A stretch of 58,574 nt of DNA from an uncultured Gammaproteobacteria bacterium. Lineage in GTDB: Bacteria > Patescibacteriota > Microgenomatia > Daviesbacterales > UBA10151. The stretch lies in the NCBI GenBank assembly GCA_964394855.1, contig CAYMZD010000002.1, forward strand, positions 1 through 58,574, written 5' to 3'. The translations under genes and the position numbers were made by a program. Each line of letters starts with the position of its first letter. The first letter of the stretch is position 1. Under the pieces are notes generated by a model. The model saw only the letters and a program-made list of their open reading frames with translations, was not told the origin of the DNA and made no database searches. Below, in pieces: positions 5,514 to 45,025 of the stretch.

Positions 5514-6007
5514 TTTCCCTCCCACCATTGAAGTGTTAATTTGTGGTATTCCTCAATATCATAAGCCACAAAACCTGGCGTTTGAAACAGGATCATTTCT
5601 TTTAAGCTCAATCCTCTTGCTGATAACTCCTGCCACATAAACCCACTGCAATCCCTGCAAGATAAATCATCGGAAACACACATACCACCATTTTCTACTT
5701 TTAGGTGTAAGACTGAAGCTTGTCTGATATCATGCCCTTTAAAAATAGCATCCTGAATTGCATCTCTTTCTGCATGAATGGTAAATAGGTTGCACACTTT
5801 CTCGCACACTGCTGGTCGACAAAACCTTCCCTGGGGTGGTCTATTATAACCTCTACCTAACAAATCAACCGCAGCCAGTCCTGGGTTGATGTTAAAAACA
5901 ACTGCTCCTCTTCGGGATTTCCAACAGGAAGATAAAAGCGCAGACTCCTGGGCAGCTTGGATTACTCTTGTCATCAGGGTTATTTCTCTGGCTTCTAAAA
6001 TTCTCAT
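5510..6007 (-). CDS. Zinc-dependent cytidine/dCMP deaminase family protein
   Basis: SSC..GAVV, GRGYNRPP, HAE and SCRDC motifs; start set at MRILEAR because the upstream extension is repeat sequence. Confidence 0.8.
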   Translation of the reverse strand: MRILEAREITLMTRVIQAAQESALLSSCWKSRRGAVVFNINPGLAAVDLLGRGYNRPPQGRFCRPAVCEKVCNLFTIHAERDAIQDAIFKGHDIRQASVLHLKVENGGMCVSDDLSCRDCSGFMWQELSARGLSLKEMILFQTPGFVAYDIEEYHKLTLQWWEGK

Positions 6008-6022
6008 ATTATTTTGGTGCTG

Positions 6023-6072
6023 TGGCGAAACGTAATAATTCGCCTTTGGCGGATTAAACGTTTCAGCAACGT
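6023..6072. repeat. 50-bp palindromic direct repeat, copy 1
   Basis: TGGCGAAACGTAATAATTCGCCTTTGGCGGATTAAACGTTTCAGCAACGT, identical to 6457-6506. Confidence 0.95.
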
Positions 6073-6100
6073 TTAAATTGTAGGGCAATTTATTACGCTG

Positions 6101-6188
6101 CGGAGGCGGTAGGATTCGAACCTACGTGAGCCTTTCGACTCCCAGGGTTTTCGAAACCCGGCTGATAAACCACTCCAAGCACGCCTCC
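6101..6188 (-). tRNA. tRNA-Ser(CGA)
   Basis: GGAGGCG acceptor, loop TT-CGA-AA, long variable arm, GGTTCGAATCC. Confidence 0.92.
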
Positions 6189-6456: not shown

Positions 6457-6506
6457 TGGCGAAACGTAATAATTCGCCTTTGGCGGATTAAACGTTTCAG
6501 CAACGT
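6457..6506. repeat. 50-bp palindromic direct repeat, copy 2
   Basis: Identical to 6023-6072; followed by a further AACGT-rich imperfect hairpin at 6501-6549. Confidence 0.95.
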
Positions 6507-6549
6507 AAAAACGTAAAATTTGTTTTGCAAATTAACGTTTTGTACGTTG

Positions 6550-6622
6550 CGCGCCCGGCGGGAATTGAACCCACAACCGCCAGATCCGCAATCTGGTGTT
6601 CTGTCCGTTGAACTACGGGCGC
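6550..6622 (-). tRNA. tRNA-Arg(GCG)
   Basis: GCGCCCG acceptor, CCAGA-TT GCG GA-TCTGG anticodon arm, GGTTCAATTCC. Confidence 0.93.
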
Positions 6623-6644
6623 AACAGGGGTATTTTACAACTTT

Positions 6645-7229
6645 TTAGTGATGGATGTTTTCCAGGGGAAAATGTTTCGCCAGACCTTCTGCCCAGCGAT
6701 CTAAAAGTGTTGTTCTGGGAATTTCATGAAATGGTAAAAACCTGGCCACTTCTTTTTTGACCTCTTCAGTGTCCTGTCCGCCAGCTGGCAGACCCAAAAC
6801 TAACATTAACTGACCGGGAAAGCGGAGCAAAGTTTGAATATACAACACCCTAAAGCCCTCTTTTTCTTTAAACCAAAACGAATCCAGTTCATGCCAAAAA
6901 TAAAAATGATCTCCAATAGTGACCCCTTGGGTGGAGATTTTATAAGTGACATCTTCTGGAGGGATAAAAGCCAAAACATAACTGACAAAAGTTAAAGCCA
7001 AAAGCACTCCAATCAACAAAAACTCCCTGGCTAAAAGAGCAATCAGGATTAACAGAATAACCAAAATAGCAATAGTAGTATAATAGGAACGCTCCTTTTT
7101 CCTAAAGGGCCTGGCTGGAGCTTGCCAAGAAAGTAAAGTTTTGACCTCCCCTGCTTCTCCCACTTTGGGATAAAATTCATCTTCACTTTCTTGTTTGGTT
7201 TCAATTGGTTTAGAAAAAAACTTAGGCAT
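6645..7229 (-). CDS. Conserved membrane protein (two TM helices plus PH-like C-terminal region)
   Basis: W.AP motif, hydrophobic pair of helices, YKISTQGV.I..FY.W pattern; carries an 18-bp palindrome in frame. Confidence 0.75.
   Translation of the reverse strand: MPKFFSKPIETKQESEDEFYPKVGEAGEVKTLLSWQAPARPFRKKERSYYTTIAILVILLILIALLAREFLLIGVLLALTFVSYVLAFIPPEDVTYKISTQGVTIGDHFYFWHELDSFWFKEKEGFRVLYIQTLLRFPGQLMLVLGLPAGGQDTEEVKKEVARFLPFHEIPRTTLLDRWAEGLAKHFPLENIHH
6776..6793. repeat. Intragenic short palindrome (CCAGCTGG family)
   Basis: GTCCGCCAGCTGGCAGAC, encodes LPAGGQ on the minus strand. Confidence 0.7.
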
Positions 7230-8237: not shown

Positions 8238-8595
8238 GGGGATGTCAAGTTTCGACAGGATGGCACTTTAAAAACTGCAAGCCGTTAAACCAATCTGTAA
8301 CGTAAAATTGTGTTGGGAAAGACAAACGCCAATTTATTTGGTCGTTCCAATAGAGTAAGCGGAGCTTACGCCTAAAGGTGTTTTAAGGTAGCTTCAAGAC
8401 GTATCCTTAAAGCAAGTACCCAGCCTTGATGCAGTTCCGATGATTTAATCCATCAATCGGAATCAAGCAATTTGGATTAAGTATTAACCTTCCTGCTAGT
8501 AGGTTACAAGTTAATACTCTCATATATACTAGCTAAGCTTGTAGAAGTTTTTAAAAGGTTTATCTTGGACGGGGGTGCAAAACCCCCCATCTCCA
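8238..8595 (+). ncRNA. ssrA: tmRNA
   Basis: 5' GGGGATG..TTCGAC, 3' CATCTCCA with G3:U70 pair, internal tag ORF 8316-8375 ending AYA-stop, smpB nearby. Confidence 0.93.
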
Positions 8596-8658
8596 CCCAT
8601 CATTCTTTGCCTGTTAATTCCTGTTCTGCGGGTAGCGACTTTTTTGTTTTCTCTATGT

Positions 8659-20577: not shown

Positions 20578-21295
20578 TCTGACCATAGTAGATATTAGAG
20601 AGGATATTGTCCTGCTAAAAGATGGGGGGGCAGCTCTAGTCTTGCAAACAACAGCTGTCAATTTTGGGCTTTTGTCCGAGATTGAACAAATGTCCATTAT
20701 TACCGCCTTTGGTCAGATGTTAAACTCACTATCTTATTCCATCCAAATAATTATTCGCTCCAAAAGACTTGATATCAGCTCTTATTTGGGTTTATTGGAT
20801 AGGGCCTTAAAATTGCAAACTAGCCCCCTATTTTCACAACTGATGGCCAGATATAGACAATTTGTCCAATCTTTAATCAAAGAAAAAGAGGTGTTGGATA
20901 AAAATTTTTATGTAGTCATTCCTCTTTCCCGTTTTGAGCTGGGGATTCGAATCACTAGCGCTGATAGATTAAAAAAAAGCGTGGCTATGTTACAGCCTAG
21001 AAAAGATCAGATAGCCAAACAGTTGAGTAGGGTAGGTTTAAAAGCTACTCAACTGGGCAATAAAGCTCTATTACAACTTTTTTACGACATCTATAATCCT
21101 CCAGATAACAATCAGCTCTTTTTACCAACTACCAACTTAGCTACTCCTGGCTTATCACTCAATATTCCCCAAACAGCCCCCCCACCACCCCCACCACCAA
21201 TAGCTAAACCTTTACCAGACCAACCCCCTCCCATCATCAGCCAATCATCAAAAACCCACCCCTTTGTGGTGGAAGAGTTAGCAGATACCTTATGA
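20558..21295 (+). CDS. VirB4-associated (TraC N-terminal-like) protein
   Basis: DIREDIVLLKDG..VNFGLLSE.EQ..LNSL pattern directly upstream of the ATPase; Pro-rich tail. Confidence 0.65.
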   Translation: METTQTNLTIVDIREDIVLLKDGGAALVLQTTAVNFGLLSEIEQMSIITAFGQMLNSLSYSIQIIIRSKRLDISSYLGLLDRALKLQTSPLFSQLMARYRQFVQSLIKEKEVLDKNFYVVIPLSRFELGIRITSADRLKKSVAMLQPRKDQIAKQLSRVGLKATQLGNKALLQLFYDIYNPPDNNQLFLPTTNLATPGLSLNIPQTAPPPPPPPIAKPLPDQPPPIISQSSKTHPFVVEELADTL

Positions 21296-23082
21296 AATTA
21301 AACATCTTTGCCAAGTCCCAAATCAGCCAAGAAAGCCCCACTCCTCAACTAACCGTCAAGGATGTATTGGCACCTCCAGAGATAGAGATAGATTTCAATC
21401 ATCTAAGAATTGGTGATAACTTCTACAGAACTTATTTCATGTCAGGATACCCACGTTTTGCAGAACCAAATTGGCTAGAACCATTAATTTCTTTTGACCA
21501 CCCCTTAACCGTTTCTATGTTTATCTATCCCACCCAGTCTAAGGGGGTGTTAGATGATTTAAAAAGAAAAGTTGCCGAAATGGAAGCCACCATTCAAACC
21601 GACATTGAAAGAGGCAGGGTGGTTGATCCGGCAGTACAAGTGGCCTTGGATGATGCCCAATCCCTACAAGAACAACTGGTAAAAGGGGCAGAAAGGTTTT
21701 TTGACTTTGCACTTTATGTGACCATACCAGCTCAAAGCAAGGAACAACTCAACAATGTCTCTAAATTAATTGAAAGTACTTTAAGCTCTTTGTCAATTAC
21801 ACCAAAACCTACCACTCTTCAAATGGAAGATGGTTTTATCACCACCTTACCTATTGGACAAGATCAACTGACTTTAACCCATAACATGGATACTACCTCC
21901 CTAGCCACCACTTTTCCTTTTACTTCATCAGAGCTAACAGCCAATGAAGGAATTATGTATGGTATTAACGAGCACAACGGCTCCTTAATACTATTTGATC
22001 GCTTTACCCTGGAAAATTCCAATGAGGTAGTTTTTGCTAAAGCTGGCGCTGGTAAAAGTTATTTAGTGAAGTTAGAGGTGCTTCGCTCCCTCATGTTTGG
22101 CACGGAAATTTTGGTTATTGATCCGGAGGCAGAATATTTACCCCTTTGCCAGGCAGTGGGAGGACAATATGTTAACTTCTCCACCTCCTCTCCTGTCAAA
22201 ATTAACCCTTTTGATATGTCGGGAATTTTAGTTCCGGGAGAGAACGAGTTAGGTAGAAAGATCCTTTCTCTCACCTCTTTTTTGAAATTGGTTTTGGGAA
22301 ACTTAAATCCCACCGAAAGTGCTGTTTTAGACAGAGCCTTAAAACAAACTTATCACCTAAAAGGCATCACTGACGACCCCAAAACTCAAATAAGCTCACC
22401 AGCTGGCTCGCCTCGCGAAGCTGGCGAAGCGGGCGGACCGCCCTTAATGGAAGATTTGTATAAAGTTTTAATCGGCATGGAGGAAAAAGTGGCGCTAGAT
22501 TTGGCAGAGCGACTAGAGAGATTTGTTAAAGGGTCTCTCTCTGGTATCTTTTCTTCTCCCTCGAATATTACCTTAACCAACTCTTTTACTGTTTTTTCTA
22601 TTCGGGATGTGGTAGAGGAACTGCGACCTTTAGCCATGTATATGATTTTGGAGTTTGTCTGGACAAAAATTCGCTCCAAGCTTAAAAAAAGAATTTTAGT
22701 GGTGGATGAAGCCTGGTATTTAATGAGAACTGAAGATTCTGCCAATTTTTTAATAGACATTGCTAAAAGAGCCCGCAAATATTACTTGGGGCTGATAACT
22801 ATTACTCAAGACGTGGAAGATTTCTTAAGTAGTGATCGGGGCAAAGAAATCATTTCCAACTCCTCAATTCAAGTGCTGTTAAAACAATCACCTGCCTCAA
22901 TTGACAGAATAGGAGAAGTTTTTTATCTCTCTGAAGGAGAAAAAAGATTGCTTCTTTCGGCTGGTGTGGGACAGGGACTTTTCTTTGCCGGACCAACACA
23001 TGTAGCCATGTCTGTGGTGGCATCCCCTGAAGAACACCAGCTGGTTACCTCTAATCCGGCAGACATACTGGCCCGTCAGTAA
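21292..23082 (+). CDS. virB4: VirB4-like ATPase
   Basis: Walker A AKAGAGKS, VIDPEAEY, INPFD, Walker B ILVVDEAW, KRARKY, ITQDVEDF. Confidence 0.92.
   Translation: MKLNIFAKSQISQESPTPQLTVKDVLAPPEIEIDFNHLRIGDNFYRTYFMSGYPRFAEPNWLEPLISFDHPLTVSMFIYPTQSKGVLDDLKRKVAEMEATIQTDIERGRVVDPAVQVALDDAQSLQEQLVKGAERFFDFALYVTIPAQSKEQLNNVSKLIESTLSSLSITPKPTTLQMEDGFITTLPIGQDQLTLTHNMDTTSLATTFPFTSSELTANEGIMYGINEHNGSLILFDRFTLENSNEVVFAKAGAGKSYLVKLEVLRSLMFGTEILVIDPEAEYLPLCQAVGGQYVNFSTSSPVKINPFDMSGILVPGENELGRKILSLTSFLKLVLGNLNPTESAVLDRALKQTYHLKGITDDPKTQISSPAGSPREAGEAGGPPLMEDLYKVLIGMEEKVALDLAERLERFVKGSLSGIFSSPSNITLTNSFTVFSIRDVVEELRPLAMYMILEFVWTKIRSKLKKRILVVDEAWYLMRTEDSANFLIDIAKRARKYYLGLITITQDVEDFLSSDRGKEIISNSSIQVLLKQSPASIDRIGEVFYLSEGEKRLLLSAGVGQGLFFAGPTHVAMSVVASPEEHQLVTSNPADILARQ
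22395..22437. repeat. Intragenic palindromic element in virB4
   Basis: GC-rich in-frame segment (SPAGSPREAGEAGG); its reverse complement matches the rnhA insert at 29 of 31 nt. Confidence 0.85.
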
Positions 23083-26797: not shown

Positions 26798-26809
26798 ATT
26801 TATCAACAA

Positions 26810-26956
26810 TTCATTCGATTATACACTATTTTTTAAAACAGTAGTATTATTTATATAGTCGGTGGATATGTGGAAAACTATTAATTTCTTATTTAGAATT
26901 CGCCTTAATTTTGTGTTGAAATGATGTTTAAAAAAGGTGGATAATTTGTGGATAAG
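26810..26956. other. Putative oriC, downstream of dnaA
   Basis: AT-rich gap with TGTGGATAA (26947-26955), GGTGGATAA (26936-26944), TGTGGAAAA (26869-26877), GGTGGATAT (26861-26869). Confidence 0.8.
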
Positions 26957-28312
26957 TTAGGATTTTAGTGAATAACTTTGTATTTTTTGTTTAACCTCAA
27001 TTAAAGTTCTCTGGACTTCCCTATCAGTGATGGCTAGTTTTTTAATCCGATCCCTACCATGCATAACCGTGGTGTGGTCTCTTCCCCCCACGATTTGTCC
27101 GATTTTTTCCACAGTTAAGTTTAACTCCTCTGATAGAATGTACATTACTATATGCCTTGGTAAAACTAACTCTTTGTTTCTTTTGGGTCCAGTTAAATCC
27201 CTCGAGTTCAAGTTAAAGTAGTCGCATACAGCCTGCATGATTTTTTTGTGATCTGTTTTTAGGGTTGTTTTGGTGGGTTGATTTAAAAAAAGTAAAATAT
27301 TATCTGTGGTGGGAGCCAGATTTTGTGTTTTTAAGACCTGTAGGATTTGAGCCAACCTTCCCTCCAACTCTCTAATATTGGAATCTACAGACGAGGCAAT
27401 CAACCTTAATGCTTCTTCTGAAAGAGTTTCTCCTTTTTCCCTGCATTTGGCCTGTAAAATGGCTACACGGGTGTCAAAATCAGGTGGTTGGATATCCACC
27501 ATTAGGCCTCCAGCAAAGCGACTTTTTAACCTATCCTCCAACTTGCCAATTTCTTGAGGGGGTCTATCTGAAGTTAACACTATTTGGGCGTTTTTAGTTT
27601 GCAGTTCATTAAAGGTGTGGAAAAATTCTTCTTGTGTACCTTCTCTGCCGGAAAAAAATTGGATATCGTCAATCAATAAAACATTAGCCAGGCGATACCT
27701 TGTTCTTAACTCGCCCATTTTATGGTTTTGAATAGCTTCTACATAATCATTCATGAATTTTTCTGAAGAGCAGTAAATTACCTGTGGATGGGTGTTTTTT
27801 TGCACCAAGGCGTTGCCAATTCCCAACATCAAATGGGTTTTGCCAACACCAGTTCCGCCATAGATAAAAAGAGGGTTGTAAGATAGGCCTGGGTTTTGTA
27901 CCACAGCCTGGGCTGCGGCGAAAGCGACGTTATTGGAAAACCCCACCATGAAATTTCCCATGGTGTATTTGGGGTTAAGATTACTTGATGTCCGCCAGTT
28001 AGTGGGTGGTGGTTGGCTAAAATCAAACAAATTTTCCTCTAAAGTGGGTGCTTTCTCGGAAAGTTTGGAGGAGTCAACCTTAAACTCAAGCTGTGGGTTT
28101 TTGCCAGTAATCTTTAAAAAGGCATCTTGGATTAAGTCAAAATACCTAGCCTTTAACTGCTCGGCAAAAAAAGCAGTGGGAACACAAATAAGAGCTTTTT
28201 TATCTGTGAGCTTATCTAAAGAGGCTTTTAAAAACCAACCCCGATAATTAATAGGGGAAATTTGAGGTTTAATTATTGCTAGAATTTCTTGCCAAATTTT
28301 TTGTGTATCCAT
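26957..28312 (-). CDS. dnaA: Chromosomal replication initiator
   Basis: YNPLFIYGGTGVGKTHL, LLIDDIQF, QEEFFHTFN, SDRPP, NIRELEG, GGRDHTTVMH. Confidence 0.99.
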   Translation of the reverse strand: MDTQKIWQEILAIIKPQISPINYRGWFLKASLDKLTDKKALICVPTAFFAEQLKARYFDLIQDAFLKITGKNPQLEFKVDSSKLSEKAPTLEENLFDFSQPPPTNWRTSSNLNPKYTMGNFMVGFSNNVAFAAAQAVVQNPGLSYNPLFIYGGTGVGKTHLMLGIGNALVQKNTHPQVIYCSSEKFMNDYVEAIQNHKMGELRTRYRLANVLLIDDIQFFSGREGTQEEFFHTFNELQTKNAQIVLTSDRPPQEIGKLEDRLKSRFAGGLMVDIQPPDFDTRVAILQAKCREKGETLSEEALRLIASSVDSNIRELEGRLAQILQVLKTQNLAPTTDNILLFLNQPTKTTLKTDHKKIMQAVCDYFNLNSRDLTGPKRNKELVLPRHIVMYILSEELNLTVEKIGQIVGGRDHTTVMHGRDRIKKLAITDREVQRTLIEVKQKIQSYSLKS

Positions 28313-28330
28313 GTGGATAACTTATACACA
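28312..28330. promoter_or_regulatory. DnaA boxes upstream of dnaA
   Basis: TGTGGATAA (28312-28320) and TTATACACA (28322-28330) back to back. Confidence 0.8.
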
Positions 28331-30450: not shown

Positions 30451-31662
30451 GTGCAAAAATTAGTTAAAATATTTCAGCAGACTTTTTGGCAACTGCTGGG
30501 AAAATTAGTCACCACTACCTCCACTTTTATTATATTGGGACTGGTGGCCAGAAATTATGGACCAGAGGGTACGGGAATTTTTACTTTGGCCCTAACCTAT
30601 TTGGCCATTTTTTATCTATTATCGGATTTTGGTTTTAATGCCCATATTTTAAGGGTAGGCAAGCAAGATCTTGAGTGGAGAAAGCTATTAGGGACCAGAC
30701 TTTTGTGGGCTACTTGTTTGGTAGTAGTCTCCATCCTCATACTCCCCTTTTTACCGTTTGCCAACTCCACTTTTTCCCAAGCAATATTTTACGGTAGCTG
30801 GGCCATTATGGCTTCAGCCACCTTTGTAACTTGTAATTTGCTTTTTCAAAAATACTTACGTTTCGATCTGGCTAATTTAGCCTTGAGTTTGGGTACCATG
30901 GTAGCGTTGGCGACCATTAGCTGGTTTGTAAAATCCCACCAACCTATTCCAGTTTTAGTTTTTGGACATTTTGTGGGTTGGACAATAGTAGCTCTTGCGG
31001 CGCTTTTTTTAGTCAAAAAATTTGTGATAGATTTACGGCCCATCTTTAATAAAGACTACATCATTTCCCTATTTAACTCTTCTTGGCCCATTGCGGCCAC
31101 ACTAGCTTTAAATACGGTTTATTTCAGGGTTGATGCCTTTATTCTTTCATCAGTTCGAACTGTTAGTGAGGTGGGTATTTACAATGTGGCTTATCAAGTT
31201 TTCCAGTCCCTTTTGGTGCTGCCCACTTTTGCGATGAACTCTTTTTACCCCATGATGCTGCAAACCTTAAAATTTAAGATGGAAAAATTTAAAAACCAGA
31301 TCAAACTGGCTGCAGCCTTACTAACCATTCTTTCCTTGGGCATATCAATCTTTACTTTTTACTTATCACCTGTTGTTATTCAGCTAATTACTGGCTCTGG
31401 TTTTGCTGGATCTGTTACTTCCTTGCAAATTCTTATCCTTGGCCTCCCTGCTTATTTTTTATCAGCCCTCTTCATGTGGGTGATGGTGGCTAAAAAAATG
31501 TATAAAGAAATGCTTTTTGTTTATGCTTTAGGGTTGGTATTTAATGTTTTGGCCAACTATATCTTTATCCCCCAGTATTCATATCTAGCTGCTGCCTGGA
31601 TAACAGGAGCATCTGAATACTTGATTTTAATAATGCAAGCAATCATACTCTTAAGAAGATGA
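30451..31662 (+). CDS. Polysaccharide flippase (Wzx/MATE-like)
   Basis: Polytopic; DFGFNA, YFRVD.FIL, VGIYNVAY. Confidence 0.85.
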   Translation: MQKLVKIFQQTFWQLLGKLVTTTSTFIILGLVARNYGPEGTGIFTLALTYLAIFYLLSDFGFNAHILRVGKQDLEWRKLLGTRLLWATCLVVVSILILPFLPFANSTFSQAIFYGSWAIMASATFVTCNLLFQKYLRFDLANLALSLGTMVALATISWFVKSHQPIPVLVFGHFVGWTIVALAALFLVKKFVIDLRPIFNKDYIISLFNSSWPIAATLALNTVYFRVDAFILSSVRTVSEVGIYNVAYQVFQSLLVLPTFAMNSFYPMMLQTLKFKMEKFKNQIKLAAALLTILSLGISIFTFYLSPVVIQLITGSGFAGSVTSLQILILGLPAYFLSALFMWVMVAKKMYKEMLFVYALGLVFNVLANYIFIPQYSYLAAAWITGASEYLILIMQAIILLRR

Positions 31663-32105
31663 AACTGATTATTTATACAGACGGAGCTTGTCGTGGTAAT
31701 CCTGGTCCCGCCTCATATGGTTTTACCATTAGCAGTGAAGAGGGTAAGTTGCTTCATGAGGAAGGTAAGTTTATCGGGGTGACCACCAATAATGTGGCCG
31801 AGTATACAGCTGTTCTGGAGGCTCTCAAGCATGCCCAACAGGAGTATGCTCCGCCTGCTTCGCCCGCTTCGCGAGGCGAGCGAGGTGAGCCTGCTGGCGG
31901 ATTGGAGATTGAACTTTACGCTGATTCCAAGTTGGTGGCAGAACAGTTATCAGGCAGGTATAAAATAAAAAACCCCAGGCTAAAAGCTATTTTTGAACAG
32001 ATTAAGATACTGGAACTGAACATAGGTAGGGTATTTTATAATCATATTCCCCGTTTTAAAAATACCCTGGCTGACAAACTGGCCAATCAGGCTCTAGATA
32101 AGTAA
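31659..32105 (+). CDS. rnhA: Ribonuclease HI family protein
   Basis: YTDGACRGNPG, TNNVAEY.A, DSKLV.EQ, HIPR..N..AD.LAN. Confidence 0.95.
   Translation: MKLIIYTDGACRGNPGPASYGFTISSEEGKLLHEEGKFIGVTTNNVAEYTAVLEALKHAQQEYAPPASPASRGERGEPAGGLEIELYADSKLVAEQLSGRYKIKNPRLKAIFEQIKILELNIGRVFYNHIPRFKNTLADKLANQALDK
31850..31901. repeat. Intragenic palindromic element in rnhA
   Basis: TCCGCC...GGCGGA termini with a nested hairpin; encodes PPASPASRGERGEPAGG. Confidence 0.88.
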
Positions 32106-40833: not shown

Positions 40834-42786
40834 ATGCCTACGATAAAGCCTAATAAATCAGAAGAAATAATTGGTGAAATCTTTAAGGATCAGGAGACAG
40901 TGTATGGTCTTAAAGAGTTTGAAGGCATAGATATTTATGACGTTTTGCATATCAGTGAGCAAGAACCGCACCGTTTTTACATTAAGGATCTAAAAACAGG
41001 CAACCAAAGATTTGTCTACGATGAGCAAAAAAAGACCGGCAAACCTGAGGAAATAGTCCGCCAGCTTTGGCTTTATAAATTGCATCACCAGTATCTTTAT
41101 CCCCTTGACCGCATTGATCTTGAAAAAAGCATACATTTTGGACGTGAAGTTCATACAAAAGCCGCGGATATCGTGGTTTATAAAAAAGACAAGATTACGC
41201 CTTACATCATTGTCGAAGTGAAAAATCCCAATGAGAAAAAAGCAATAGATCAATTAAAGAGTTACTTAAATTCAGAAGGGTGCGAAATAGGAGTTTGGTC
41301 AAACGGAGTAGAGAAAGTTGTTTTATATCGCCCATATCCTAAAGAATTTGAAGATTCCCTGGTTGATATCCCAAGAGAAAATCAGACTATAGATGATCTT
41401 TTTGAAATCAAAAGGAAATGGTCTCAGCTTAATCCCAAATTTGATTTTGTGGAAATTGTTAAACATATAGAGGAATTGGCTCTTGCAGGTTCTGGAGCTA
41501 ATGTTTTTGAAGAAATCTTTAAGATACTTTATGCAAAGCTCTATGATGAAAAACTTGCGAGGGAAAGAAGGGAAGGTGAAGAGGTACTTTTTAGAAAATA
41601 CAAAGACCCTGAAAAGACATATGAAATAATTAACGACCTGTTTAAAAACGCGATAAGAGAGTGGCCCGATACTTTTGAATTATCGGATAGAATTAGGCTA
41701 TCTCCTGTTAGACTTAATGTCTGTGTGCCATTCTTGGAAAATGTCAGACTTTTCGAAGTTGGCCAAGGTGAACTTGAAATCATAGACAGCGCATTTGAGT
41801 ATCTTATAACGGAAGTTTCTAAAGGAAAGAAGGGTCAATATTTCACGCCACGCCATGTTATTAAGATGTGCGTCCGCATACTTAACCCAAAGGATAATGA
41901 ATATGTAATTGATCCTGCCTGCGGGTCTGGAGGGTTTCTACTCCACACCATGTACCATGTTTGGGAAAATCTCCACACAGAAGCAGCCAAAAGAGAATAT
42001 GCTGGCCGCTACCTTTTTGGAGTGGACTTTGACGATAATATGCGTCGTATTTCTCAAGCCCTTATGCTTATTGCGGGTGACGGCAGACACCATATTTTTA
42101 AAAGGGATTCTTTGGATGCTAGAGACTGGCAGGGAGTGGAAAGCGAAGATGCGAGAGTTGCCCTAAGAACGCTTACACACAGATTTGAAAACTCATCAGA
42201 AGAAAAAGAAAATCAAATTTCTTACCGGTTTTTAGATTTTGATGTTTTGCTGACCAATCCTCCATTTGCGGGAGAAAACCCAGAATCCGGTCTACTTCGC
42301 CAGTATGAACTTGCTAAAAAAGACGGGAAGTTGCGAAACAATGTAGAGCGCCACATTCTTTTTATTGAACGATCACTAGATGCGATTAAACCGGGCGGAA
42401 GATTAGCGATAGTTCTACCACAGGGGGTTTTAAACAATACCAATATGGAATATATCAGAAATTGGCTGTTTGAAAAAGCCAGGATTTTGGCGGTAGTTGG
42501 TTTGCACGGGAATACATTCAAACCTCACACCGGCACAAAGACCTCCGTGTTATTTTTGCAAAAATGGGACGAGAAAGAAGAGCCTCTAAAAGATTATCCC
42601 ATTTTTATGGCGGTTTCCAAAAAAGGCGGCAAAGATAATTCCGGGGAATACATTTACAAGAAAGACGATAAAGGAAATTATGTACATGATAGTAAAGGTA
42701 GAAAAGTTTTAGATCATGATTTAGATGAAATAGCGGATAGGTTTATCGAATTTGCCAAAAAAGAAGGATTTAGTTTTTGGAGGTAA
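40834..42786 (+). CDS. Fused restriction endonuclease and N6-adenine methyltransferase (type IIG/IIB-like)
   Basis: N-terminal PEEIVRQ..ADIVV..IVEVK nuclease domain; GQYFTPR, DPACGSGGFL, NPPF motifs. Confidence 0.92.
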   Translation: MPTIKPNKSEEIIGEIFKDQETVYGLKEFEGIDIYDVLHISEQEPHRFYIKDLKTGNQRFVYDEQKKTGKPEEIVRQLWLYKLHHQYLYPLDRIDLEKSIHFGREVHTKAADIVVYKKDKITPYIIVEVKNPNEKKAIDQLKSYLNSEGCEIGVWSNGVEKVVLYRPYPKEFEDSLVDIPRENQTIDDLFEIKRKWSQLNPKFDFVEIVKHIEELALAGSGANVFEEIFKILYAKLYDEKLARERREGEEVLFRKYKDPEKTYEIINDLFKNAIREWPDTFELSDRIRLSPVRLNVCVPFLENVRLFEVGQGELEIIDSAFEYLITEVSKGKKGQYFTPRHVIKMCVRILNPKDNEYVIDPACGSGGFLLHTMYHVWENLHTEAAKREYAGRYLFGVDFDDNMRRISQALMLIAGDGRHHIFKRDSLDARDWQGVESEDARVALRTLTHRFENSSEEKENQISYRFLDFDVLLTNPPFAGENPESGLLRQYELAKKDGKLRNNVERHILFIERSLDAIKPGGRLAIVLPQGVLNNTNMEYIRNWLFEKARILAVVGLHGNTFKPHTGTKTSVLFLQKWDEKEEPLKDYPIFMAVSKKGGKDNSGEYIYKKDDKGNYVHDSKGRKVLDHDLDEIADRFIEFAKKEGFSFWR

Positions 42787-42788
42787 GA

Positions 42789-43595
42789 ATGCTAGAACGT
42801 ACATTTATTCAAAAATGGAGAACTTTTTTAAGTATTATATTTTCTCCAGGTTCCATTATCCCATTTATTTTATCAGCCTTATGTTTGTTTTTAGCAATAT
42901 CTGTTTTTACAGGTGCTCTATCTAGTCTGCTATCAATATTTGCTTCTATTTTAACCGCTATAGCAGGATTTTTTGTAAAAGAGGATTGGGATAGAGTACA
43001 AGGTAATACAATGCTAGAGAAAAAGGGACGATCTGCAATCAGGAATCTTGGATCAATTGAGCAACAAATTATTCAGATAAGAAATTGGATTAAGAATTTT
43101 CTAGGAAGTAAGAATATAACTGAGAGGGAATTAAAAGAAATTGATCGTCACCTTACTACTACTCAAATGAATATTAAATCTGGGTTAGAAGACTGGATAG
43201 ACATAGTGCCTGAATTGAAGAAAAAAGAAGAATTCGCAAAAAAATATCAAGAAACATTAGAGGCTAATATGGAAGAGCTTTTAAAAAAAGAAGCTGAACT
43301 ATTAAAAATTGGGGAAACAAATAAGGAGCTAAAAGTACAACTAGAAAAGAGGATAAAAGAATTAGAGAAACGAGTACAAGAGTTGAAAAGCGAACAATCA
43401 AATGTGTTTGGTGGACTTATGCCTTCAACCTCCCCATATTCATTCGTAACTATCTCACCATCAGGTTCTGGTACGCTATCTAATTTACTTCCCAAGACTT
43501 GTTCAATTTGTGGAAAGGTTTACAAGGATGACAATAGTCCAACTATTTCCCTAAATGATGTGTGCCCAGAATGCAAAAGACGGGGTAGAGATTAG
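42789..43595 (+). CDS. Hypothetical protein: two TM helices, coiled coil, C-terminal zinc ribbon
   Basis: GGAGGT SD, hydrophobic N-terminus, heptad-rich region, CSIC..CPEC. Confidence 0.8.
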   Translation: MLERTFIQKWRTFLSIIFSPGSIIPFILSALCLFLAISVFTGALSSLLSIFASILTAIAGFFVKEDWDRVQGNTMLEKKGRSAIRNLGSIEQQIIQIRNWIKNFLGSKNITERELKEIDRHLTTTQMNIKSGLEDWIDIVPELKKKEEFAKKYQETLEANMEELLKKEAELLKIGETNKELKVQLEKRIKELEKRVQELKSEQSNVFGGLMPSTSPYSFVTISPSGSGTLSNLLPKTCSICGKVYKDDNSPTISLNDVCPECKRRGRD

Positions 43596-43670
43596 ATGAT
43601 CAACTTTTCCATAATCCAAAAATCTCAACTTGATGGTTCGACAGGCTCACCACAAGAGGAGCACATATGA
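43596..43670 (+). pseudogene. Vestigial specificity-subunit N-terminus
   Basis: MINFSIIQKSQLDG resembles MITYSIIKRSELEG of the downstream S gene; diverges at a palindrome. Confidence 0.65.
43634..43652. repeat. Short palindrome (TGAGCCTG.CGAA family)
   Basis: TGGTTCGACAGGCTCACCA. Confidence 0.75.
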
Positions 43671-45025
43671 TTACTTATTCGATAATCAAAAGGAGTGAGT
43701 TAGAGGGGGTTTTGCGGCTGGATGCGGAATATTACCAGCCGGAATATTTTATTGATTTCAGCAAAGGCAATTGGTTGCCAATTAGGGAAACTTTAGAAGT
43801 TTGCCAGTATGGAATATCTAAGGACATGAATGAAAATGGGATAGGGTTTCCTATTTTTAGAATGAACGACATTAAAAATGCTTTCCTTGCTGAAGATGAA
43901 TTAAAATATGCAGATATACCTGATGACCTTTTAGCAGAATATAAACTTGAGAGAGATGACATACTATTTAATAGGGTAAACGCAGAAGAATTTGTTGGCA
44001 GGACAGGAATAGTTAAACTAATTGATCATTTTGTTTTTGCTTCCTATCTAATTAGATTACGTACAAAAAAGAATGGAATTATAAAGCCTGATTATCTAAA
44101 TATTTTCTTAAATTCAAGTTATGGTATTAAACAAATAAGAAAATTTAGAAGACGTGCAGTAAATCAAGCTAATGTAAATGCTGAAGAACTAAAACAAATA
44201 AGAATCCCTGTTTTATCGCTAAACATTCAGGAAGAAATCAGTAAATTATCAAATGAATCATGGAATCAAACAGAACAGTCGAAATCTTATTACCAACAGG
44301 CCGAGAACTTCCTTTTGGAGGAGTTGGGATTTAAGGACTTTCGGGTTGAAGATGATTTAAGTTTTGTTGTTAATCTTTCAGACGTAAAATCTGCAAAACG
44401 GGTTGATGCGGATTATTTCCAGCCAAAGTATCAAAAGTTAGTTGAACAGATTGAAAAACATAATGCAAAACTACTTGGTAATTTAGTTTCGATGAAGAAA
44501 GGTTTTGAGCCGGGAAGTGAGGCATATCAAGAAGAAGGTAAACTTTTCATTAGAGTTAGCAGTCTCTCTAAATTTGGCATTGAGGATAAAGATCAAAAAT
44601 ATTTAAGTGATGATTTATACGGAAAACTTAAGGTAAACTTTGAACCAAAAATAGGCGAAATTTTATTAACAAAGGATGCAACTCCTGGTATAGCCTATGT
44701 TTTAAAAGAAGCAGTAGAAGGAATAATATCTGGGGGAATGATGAGATTAAAGGTAAATAATGATATTGACCCAGAATATCTAGCTTTATGTATAAGTTCT
44801 TTAACTGGTCAAATGCAAGCAGGAAGAGATGCAGGAGGATCAATAATAGCTCATTGGAAACCAGAACAAATCAAGAATTTATTAATTCCAGTTCTACCAA
44901 AACCCACCCAACAAAAAATTGCAGAGTTGGTCAGGAAATCCCATGAAGCAAGGAAGAAATCAAAGCAGCTTTTAGAAGAGGCAAAAAGAAAAGTTGAAGA
45001 AATGATAGAGGAGAAATCAAATTAA
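43667..45025 (+). CDS. hsdS: Restriction-modification specificity subunit with two TRDs
   Basis: RLDAEYY and RVDADYF repeats, FASYLIRLR, YLNIFLNS, L.IP.L..QQKIA. Confidence 0.9.
   Translation: MITYSIIKRSELEGVLRLDAEYYQPEYFIDFSKGNWLPIRETLEVCQYGISKDMNENGIGFPIFRMNDIKNAFLAEDELKYADIPDDLLAEYKLERDDILFNRVNAEEFVGRTGIVKLIDHFVFASYLIRLRTKKNGIIKPDYLNIFLNSSYGIKQIRKFRRRAVNQANVNAEELKQIRIPVLSLNIQEEISKLSNESWNQTEQSKSYYQQAENFLLEELGFKDFRVEDDLSFVVNLSDVKSAKRVDADYFQPKYQKLVEQIEKHNAKLLGNLVSMKKGFEPGSEAYQEEGKLFIRVSSLSKFGIEDKDQKYLSDDLYGKLKVNFEPKIGEILLTKDATPGIAYVLKEAVEGIISGGMMRLKVNNDIDPEYLALCISSLTGQMQAGRDAGGSIIAHWKPEQIKNLLIPVLPKPTQQKIAELVRKSHEARKKSKQLLEEAKRKVEEMIEEKSN

Follow-up and report, generated by a model that had tools for sequence, protein, structure and literature searches.

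A small GC-rich palindromic repeat, apparently copied as DNA, within unrelated genes of Microgenomates (CPR) bacteria

Introduction

CPR genomes are tiny, streamlined and thought to be poor in repetitive or mobile DNA. In the 58.6-kb stretch of DNA analysed here (the whole stretch is referred to as the window), which comes from an uncultured bacterium of groundwater, a gene for a VirB4/TraC-like type IV secretion system (T4SS) ATPase and the RNase HI gene rnhA nevertheless contain nearly the same short GC-rich segment, in opposite orientations and 9.4 kb apart. How did the same sequence come to lie within two unrelated genes, are these segments additions to their host proteins, and are there further copies in other genomes? 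These questions are addressed below by comparing the segments with each other, with orthologues of the two host genes, and with genomic and metagenomic sequences.

Results

A near-identical segment in virB4 and rnhA

Within the VirB4/TraC-like gene, the minus strand of positions 22406–22437 reads TCCGCCCGCTTCGCCAGCTTCGCGAGGCGAGC, and within rnhA, the plus strand of positions 31850–31881 reads TCCGCCTGCTTCGCCCGCTTCGCGAGGCGAGC. The two agree at 30 of 32 bases, in opposite orientations. The original prediction had claimed that the reverse complement of a virB4 segment matches an rnhA segment with two mismatches, and this was reproduced, except that the exact 32-mer begins at 22406 and not at 22395. 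When up to 3 mismatches were allowed, these two were the sole matches in the window, and none was obtained in dinucleotide-preserving shuffles (0/100). A repeat search independently returned the pair, as 22400–22437 and 31850–31887, as the longest inverted repeat of the window (38 nt, 89% complementary). The window has a GC content of 39.8%, and its only 36-nt stretches of at least 70% GC are one tRNA and the two element copies. The pair is therefore confirmed as a real observation.

The gene names proposed originally agree with the Pfam matches, which are P-loop_TraG, AAA_10 and DUF87 for the VirB4/TraC-like T4SS ATPase (21292–23082, plus strand, 596 aa) and RNase_H/RVT_3 for RNase HI (31659–32105, plus strand, 148 aa). 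The former belongs to a T4SS-like cluster that also includes pilins, PrgI and a TraC-like gene. The two translations were likewise found as written: the 596-aa ORF contains ...ISSPAGSPREAGEAGGPP..., and the 148-aa ORF contains ...APPASPASRGERGEPAGG.... Because the two genes read opposite strands of the segment, and hence encode different peptides, the comparison supports DNA-level copying as the only reasonable source of the 30/32 identity.

The sequence derives from a metagenome-assembled genome and both segments stand out in composition, as might be the case if an assembly or chimeric-read artefact had arisen or a GC-rich contaminant had been joined into the contig. However, the rnhA copy has the same sequence in three independent Logan assemblies (L007–L009) from other runs, both copies are in frame, have lengths divisible by three and coincide exactly with variable loops of otherwise intact genes, and a related copy is present in an unrelated JGI metagenome (see below). 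An artefact is considered extremely improbable. The VirB4 copy was seen in the source assembly only, apart from one possible similar place.

Both segments are extra relative to orthologues

Both segments had been described as inserts, and alignment with VirB4 and RNase HI orthologues bears this out. In VirB4, the site is flanked by the conserved motifs DDPKTQ and PPLMEDLY, which enclose 18 residues in the window protein as compared to 5–9 residues in all 119 other homologues listed; the loop is 8–13 residues shorter in 119 of these 119. The nearest homologue is 80% identical, and in a neighbor-joining (NJ) tree built without the insert region, the clade-mates of the window protein all have the 'empty' state KTQxL(P/T)PP. 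Walker A (GAGKS) and DEAW are invariant columns in the alignment. The structural model has a mean pLDDT of 54.9 and places the insert (residues 368–382) in a coil between two helices with pLDDT below 50; given this low confidence, the model was used only to describe the insert as predicted coil. Overall, the comparison with orthologues shows an insertion of approximately 13 residues in a loop of VirB4.

Similarly, the RNase HI segment lies in the loop between helix A (residues 44–63) and strand 4 (residues 82–88), and approximately 115 of 119 homologues are without it. In the alignment with the best solved RNase H, 3u3g, a gap of 13 residues falls at the insert. The AlphaFold model (mean pLDDT 90.8) is confident except at residues of about 61–80, and the stretch 64–81, between the helix and the strand, is a low-confidence coil. 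Catalytic positions D8, E48, D89, and D139 do not vary across the alignment. This segment is thus a loop insertion of approximately 13 residues as well, with the catalytic motifs intact. The nearest RNase HI homologues are 66–69% identical, and the closest homologues of the host proteins are named Daviesbacteria or Microgenomates.

The original prediction had named two results that would speak against copying, namely an absence of further copies and equally long loops in orthologues. Instead, orthologue loops are shorter, and copies occur in a second organism (see below). A target duplication was also sought at the insert breakpoints. None is present: neither copy has a direct repeat of host sequence at its junctions.

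Anatomy of the element

The element is an imperfect palindrome of approximately 40–52 bp and 74–75% GC, with a core that is conserved (TTCGCC-N-GCTTCGCGAGGCGAG) and an interior that repeats every 9 nt, in which the unit GCTTCGCCN occurs twice and is followed by its approximate complement GGCGAGC once or twice. Copy 1, in VirB4 (22396–22437, minus strand; 42 nt, 14 codons, approximately 74% GC), reads TCCGCCCGCTTCGCCAGCTTCGCGAGGCGAGCCAGCTGGTGA, and its VirB4-frame translation is SPAGSPREAGEAGG. Copy 2, in rnhA (31850–31901, plus strand; 52 nt, 17 codons), has the layout TCCGCC TGCTTCGCC CGCTTCGCG AGGCGAGCG AGGTGAGCC TGCTGGCGG A, in which two GCTTCGCSN 9-nt units precede two units approximately complementary to them. 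The VirB4 copy has the same left end and core, one 9-nt unit fewer (the additional unit in rnhA being GAGGTGAGC), and a degenerate right end; only the rnhA copy has the complete inverted ends TCCGCC...GGCGGA (6–9 bp). Copying had been called recent, and this holds in a relative sense only, as a 9-nt (or 3-nt) indel and diverged ends separate the copies.

As single-stranded DNA, the copies are predicted to fold at −15 to −17 kcal/mol, with z values of −1.8 to −2.8 relative to shuffles. The base pairs of the core hairpin are invariant across copies, and a covariation test therefore gives no information. On reading of the sequence, no GTAG/CTAC or CGTC/GACG tag is present within or adjoining either copy. 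The GACG closest to the VirB4 copy falls in host codons approximately 20 nt upstream of it.

Both orientations had been described as free of stops, and five of the six frames are in fact open. The frames in use read PPASPASRGERGEPAGG (RNase HI) and (P)PAGSPR..EAGEAGG (VirB4), and the four unused frames read SACFARFARRAR*, RLLRPLREASEVSLLAD, RQQAHLARLAKRAKQAE, and ASRLTSLASRSGRSRRS. Only the two used frames avoid hydrophobic, cysteine or highly basic peptides. The lengths of both copies are reported as multiples of three (14 and 17 codons), the frames are open and the host genes are intact; for these reasons, the copies are probably translated.

Further copies in a second organism

The 23-mer core TTCGCCNGCTTCGCGAGGCGAGC was used as the query for exact scans. 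Three matches were obtained in 185,579 representative genomes, and these were taken as chance, because all are in genomes of 60–65% GC and their flanks are without similarity. The JGI metagenomes also gave three matches, one of which is relevant: a contig of 42% GC (L013), in which the exact 23-mer is in frame in a LytR_C protein and reads ISPASRGEQSGP, immediately N-terminal of the domain. A second copy on this contig, the variant CCCGCTTCGCCGAATCGAGGCGAGG, is located 4.7 kb from the first and is oppositely oriented; it falls in frame within the N-terminal part of Rho, where it reads STSPRFGEAGRDV just before the RNA-binding domain. Both L013 copies keep the core and are without the TCCGCC/GGCGGA ends. 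All four long copies are intragenic, in the same frame class, and in linkers or loops of unrelated genes. They therefore appear to represent an element family with a low copy number, distributed over at least two organisms and four unrelated genes, although with only four long copies known the term 'family' rests on few members.

Searches of other sequences returned no additional members. The 10-kb flanks of the window (JACQIZ010000003.1, GCA_016198205.1) have no third copy. A sequence-only model built from the four long copies (R1), which scores those copies at 24–40 bits, found nothing beyond them in 173 kb plus 49 kb of Microgenomates DNA, and there are no long copies in approximately 90 kb from seven other Microgenomates loci. 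The density of long copies is 2 in the approximately 78 kb of the source genome and 2 in 7 kb of L013. At the protein level, a six-frame composite peptide query against 5.8 billion proteins was passed only by the RNase HI of the window itself (25 bits, E = 8). Identity over 18 residues is at the limit of detection, and the peptide search therefore says nothing on other copies. A 16-mer search of viral contigs gave 16 matches, all in GC-rich contigs and judged to be chance, and phage BLAST with the element gave nothing credible.

One explanation for identical cores across organisms, and one in which the inserts need not be mobile, is that a conserved gene or structural RNA of high GC content, at another place in these genomes, served as a master copy, and that pieces of it were pasted into breaks by templated repair. 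The pattern of conservation is compatible with this: the core is kept rather than the ends, 23 nt are identical between the two organisms, and the ends are ragged. However, no third copy is present in the window, its flanks or the other loci examined, and no donor or master copy was found among the sequences compared; the same holds for a same-species empty-site allele. Additionally, the segment has no credible Rfam family. The best candidate, D12-methyl, scored 23.9 bits, below its gathering score of 57, and was rejected, and the segment has no rRNA, RNase P, tmRNA or SRP matches in Rfam. The element is also absent from the tmRNA and tRNAs of the window. Fragments of a master copy are accordingly regarded as quite unlikely.

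Short GC palindromes at the same loops

Relatives of both host proteins have shorter additions at the same sites. In approximately 40% of VirB4 homologues the loop is 3–4 residues longer, of the type NPPAGGPP, NPPSGPP or SGAAGPP, and at the insert site of RNase HI, NPPAGG, LPVGG or LPAGG is found in three homologues. For instance, the RNase HI gene of L001 contains the perfect GC palindrome CCGCCGGCCGGCGG (codons AAT CCG CCG GCC GGC GGG), and the VirB4 gene of L002 contains the perfect GC palindrome TCCGCCAGCCGGCGGA (codons AAT CCG CCA GCC GGC GGA). The 16-mer TCCGCCAGCCGGCGGA is also present, identically, in the RadA gene of L013, in a loop 2 residues longer than that of S. pneumoniae RadA. 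The short palindrome, the degenerate form of which is TCCGCCNGCNGGCGGA, reads PPAGG in the VirB4 and RNase HI copies and, in another frame, SASRR in the RadA copy. Either strand of it encodes PPAGG, and its two halves correspond to the ends of the long element in rnhA. Because relatives hold short GC palindromes there, the VirB4 and RNase HI loops appear to be recurrent sites for GC-rich hairpins. As a class, GC-rich 6-bp hairpins showed no general enrichment in the Microgenomates loci examined.

The distribution of short palindromes in the VirB4 tree is patchy, and one pair of VirB4 sequences is informative in this regard. L033 and L034 share 98% protein identity and have AAC CGA CAG versus the palindrome TCC GGC GCA GCC GGA at the site, with substitutions clustered around it. 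The cluster may be an imported recombination tract, and the patchiness as a whole could be the result of allelic recombination rather than repeated insertion.

The short palindromes also bear on whether the resemblance of the two long copies is convergent, each having expanded independently from a PPAGG-type palindrome via slippage and hairpin template switching. Relatives bear short palindromes at exactly these two loops, and the long copies show a 9-nt periodicity, with a single 9-nt unit separating the two, which such a process could produce. In contrast, an identity of 30/32 that includes non-palindromic and non-periodic positions cannot arise twice, the same 23-mer is found in another organism, and the nearest VirB4 relatives of the window have an empty site and not a short palindrome. 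Convergence is highly improbable: it is effectively refuted by the level of identity and survives only for the origin of the first long copy.

Position relative to the probable origin

The two copies are on opposite sides of a probable oriC region (26800–28330), in which DnaA-box clusters at 26800–26955 and 28312–28330 flank dnaA (26957–28312, minus strand). The cumulative GC skew has its minimum at 26.5–27.5 kb. Relative to the first cluster, one copy is located 4.5 kb to the left and the other 5.0 kb to the right. Their inversion on the chromosome gives the copies a common orientation with respect to fork movement, and at both, the lagging-strand template is the strand TCCGCC..GCTTCGCGAGGCGAGC. 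A shared fork orientation has a chance expectation of 50% when there are only two copies, and it is therefore a lead only.

This arrangement would be expected of a Y1 enzyme. The copies could thus represent a non-autonomous REP- or MITE-like transposon moved in trans, for instance by an IS200/IS605-type Y1 enzyme (RAYT) acting on the hairpin in single-stranded fork DNA, although the caveat about chance applies here as well. Inverted ends and a stable hairpin in the rnhA copy, together with the occurrence of copies in either orientation in unrelated genes of two organisms, are in keeping with a transposon, and intragenic REPs are documented (PMC3733652). However, it is the core and not the ends that is conserved, with the VirB4 copy lacking the right end and the L013 copies lacking TCCGCC/GGCGGA. 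There is also neither a target-site duplication nor a GTAG or CGTC tag, and the copy number is very low. No transposase domain, including Y1_Tnp/RAYT, was found in the scanned ORFs of the window or by Pfam in its 10-kb flanks, which together cover approximately 78 kb of a genome whose source contig alone measures 283 kb. Movement as a transposon is considered rather unlikely.

Discussion

How the copies may have arisen

Taken together, the observations are best accounted for by one small intragenic palindromic repeat of Microgenomates (CPR) that was copied as DNA, with templated copying free of a transposase as the favoured route. This reading is held with somewhat better than even confidence. 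The element would have moved between loci as DNA, in either orientation, and a copy would persist only if its length is a multiple of three, if it falls in the one frame per strand that reads Pro/Ala/Ser/Gly/Arg/Glu, and if it lands in a surface loop or in a linker between domains. A surviving copy would then be translated as a disordered, harmless loop, and the element would need no function of its own. Copying itself would occur by replication- or repair-associated template switching, or by short-patch conversion, at hairpin-prone GC palindromes.

Templated synthesis without a transposase is inferred as the mechanism, and is favoured over transposase cut-and-paste, on several grounds: conservation is of the core and not of the ends, a target duplication is absent, the length steps are 3 or 9 nt, the copy number is low, no transposase domain was found in approximately 78 kb, and in relatives the same two loops bear short GC palindromes. 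A CTCAC stretch may represent junction microhomology with the empty-site allele of L011, but this is ambiguous, and either of the two window copies may have been the donor. Two observations are contrary to templated copying, or to templated copying alone. The copies are 9.4 kb apart, beyond the usual range of a template switch, and the identical core in a second organism is left unexplained. These keep the transposon and master-copy models alive.

A more specific form of transposase-free copying can be envisaged, in which short palindromes (TCCGCC-NGCN-GGCGGA) act as landing or priming sites for the longer 9-nt periodic palindrome during replication, possibly between sister forks. Sister-fork copying would explain the inverted, near-symmetric placement (4.5 and 5.0 kb) about oriC. 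Such hairpin-seeded copying is speculative and considered very unlikely; if true, it would represent a new way for peptide-coding DNA to spread from gene to gene.

Comparison with known palindromic repeats and mobile elements

RPEs of Rickettsia are approximately 100–150 bp in length and are present in tens to hundreds of copies. Palindromic repeats that lie in frame in functional genes have been described as RPEs in Rickettsia (Ogata et al. 2000) and as intragenic REPs in several phyla (PMC3733652). The element resembles RPEs in being a palindromic repeat, with no coding capacity of its own, in frame in unrelated functional genes of a small-genome bacterium, and in adding a peptide (here probably translated) at tolerated surface sites while the functional residues of the host protein are kept. 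RPEs have a CGTC tag at one end (PMC3733652). In contrast, the element has no such tag, is 42–52 bp long with four copies known, belongs to an unrelated phylum and is much more GC-rich than its genome; it is set apart from the RPE consensus families by its length.

Like REPs (20–40 bp), the element is a G+C-rich imperfect stem-loop, although at 42–52 nt it is slightly longer than typical. REPs occasionally lie within ORFs, and then often in replication and repair genes (PMC3733652), and the genes that host the element similarly include those for RNase HI, RadA, Rho, and the T4SS ATPase. RAYT transposases are associated with REPs (PMC2817692), whereas no RAYT was found in the approximately 78 kb scanned here. 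The element also differs from REPs in the absence of a GTAG/CGTC tag, in its low copy number as compared to more than 100 per genome, and in that all four known copies are intragenic, whereas REPs are mostly downstream of genes.

Bacterial MITEs that add peptides to ORFs include the QMITEs of Coxiella (PMC5896051) and the RU elements of enterobacteria (PMC2759123). The element is likewise a small non-coding repeat with inverted ends inside genes, to which it adds residues. However, MITEs are 70–300 bp in length and have terminal inverted repeats of 15–30 bp, target duplications and a parent IS (PMC3733652), whereas the element is shorter than 70 bp, has inverted ends of 6–9 bp in the rnhA copy only, and is without a duplication.

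Quasipalindromic or short-range template switches make or perfect inverted repeats, produce inverted copies of short sequences and may add residues to proteins, and the known events copy from within tens to hundreds of bases (PMC7202029, PMC8604942, PMC7954356). The perfect short palindromes at the same loops and the ragged ends of the copies are compatible with such events. An inverted copy does lie on the same replicon, but the copies are 9.4 kb apart, across oriC, and a related core is present in another organism.

Overall, the element appears to work like RPEs and intragenic REPs, and differs from them in tag, length, copy number and extragenic bias. 'Selfish DNA inside genes' is already known from Rickettsia, and what is new here is the very small size and low copy number. 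No reports of such elements in CPR/Patescibacteria were found in a literature search of limited coverage.

Implications for CPR genomes

The presence of the element in essential genes, those for RNase HI, Rho and a secretion ATPase, and its tolerance as a disordered loop suggest that the Rickettsia type of 'selfish DNA inside genes' also exists in the CPR radiation, in a form far smaller than in Rickettsia and apparently without a transposase. It may provide a concrete source for unexplained low-complexity inserts in many CPR proteins. Such inserts would be worth masking in annotation and phylogenetics, and the element would mark loops that tolerate insertions.

Insert loops in homologous genes

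The loop between helix A and strand 4, at which the RNase HI of the window carries its insert, is also occupied in a homologue. RNase HI homologue P0042 (L010:932-973) has a different, GC-richer insert, CCCTCGACTTCGCTCGGAACAGGGAGTCAAGAGTCAAGAGGG, exactly at this position, which is translated as PSTSLGTGSQESRG and lies on a contig of 35.5% GC. This different insert has inverted ends (CCCTCgACT / AGTCaaGAGGG), and its presence suggests that hairpin inserts of at least two families use the RNase HI loop. Additionally, the gene calls of several RNase HI homologues (P0005, P0037, P0069, and P0116) begin with N-terminal extensions such as MTSLRGLAVGEDEAIS, which resemble translations of GC-rich repeat DNA lying upstream and do not look like genuine protein.

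For VirB4, the proteins of two of the compared loci, L033 and L034, are 98% identical and differ at the insert loop, where AAC CGA CAG in one stands against the perfect palindrome TCCGGCGCAGCCGGA in the other (L033:2929-2943 versus L034:11105-11113). Nucleotide substitutions between the two genes are concentrated within approximately 80 nt around the palindrome site, a pattern that resembles the import of a short tract by recombination.

In the second organism (contig L013), the RadA gene contains a 16-mer palindrome, TCCGCCAGCCGGCGGA, at 5947-5962 that is translated as SASRR, and a second GC island at 6633-6677, in the linker C-terminal to the zinc finger, that includes GGGCTTCGCGGACC and is translated as PPKGGLRGPRAE.

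Other features of the window and the origin region

Two copies of a 55 nt direct repeat (6023-6077 and 6457-6511; 96% identical) each lie just before the coordinates of a minus-strand tRNA gene (6101-6188 and 6550-6622, respectively), and may represent a duplicated tRNA flank or a terminator/leader module. The window also encodes a tmRNA (8238-8598; 103 bits) and a type I/IIG-like restriction-modification cluster (40834-45025), in which an ORF with HSDR_N_2, N6_Mtase and Eco57I domains is accompanied by a specificity subunit (Methylase_S).

Two DnaA-box clusters (26800-26955 and 28312-28330) lie on either side of dnaA, where cumulative GC skew reaches its minimum, which suggests a bipartite oriC. 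The origin is directly adjoined by a T4SS-like gene cluster (pilins, PrgI, TraC-like, and VirB4), an arrangement that is syntenic across several Microgenomates loci (L002, L034, and L035).
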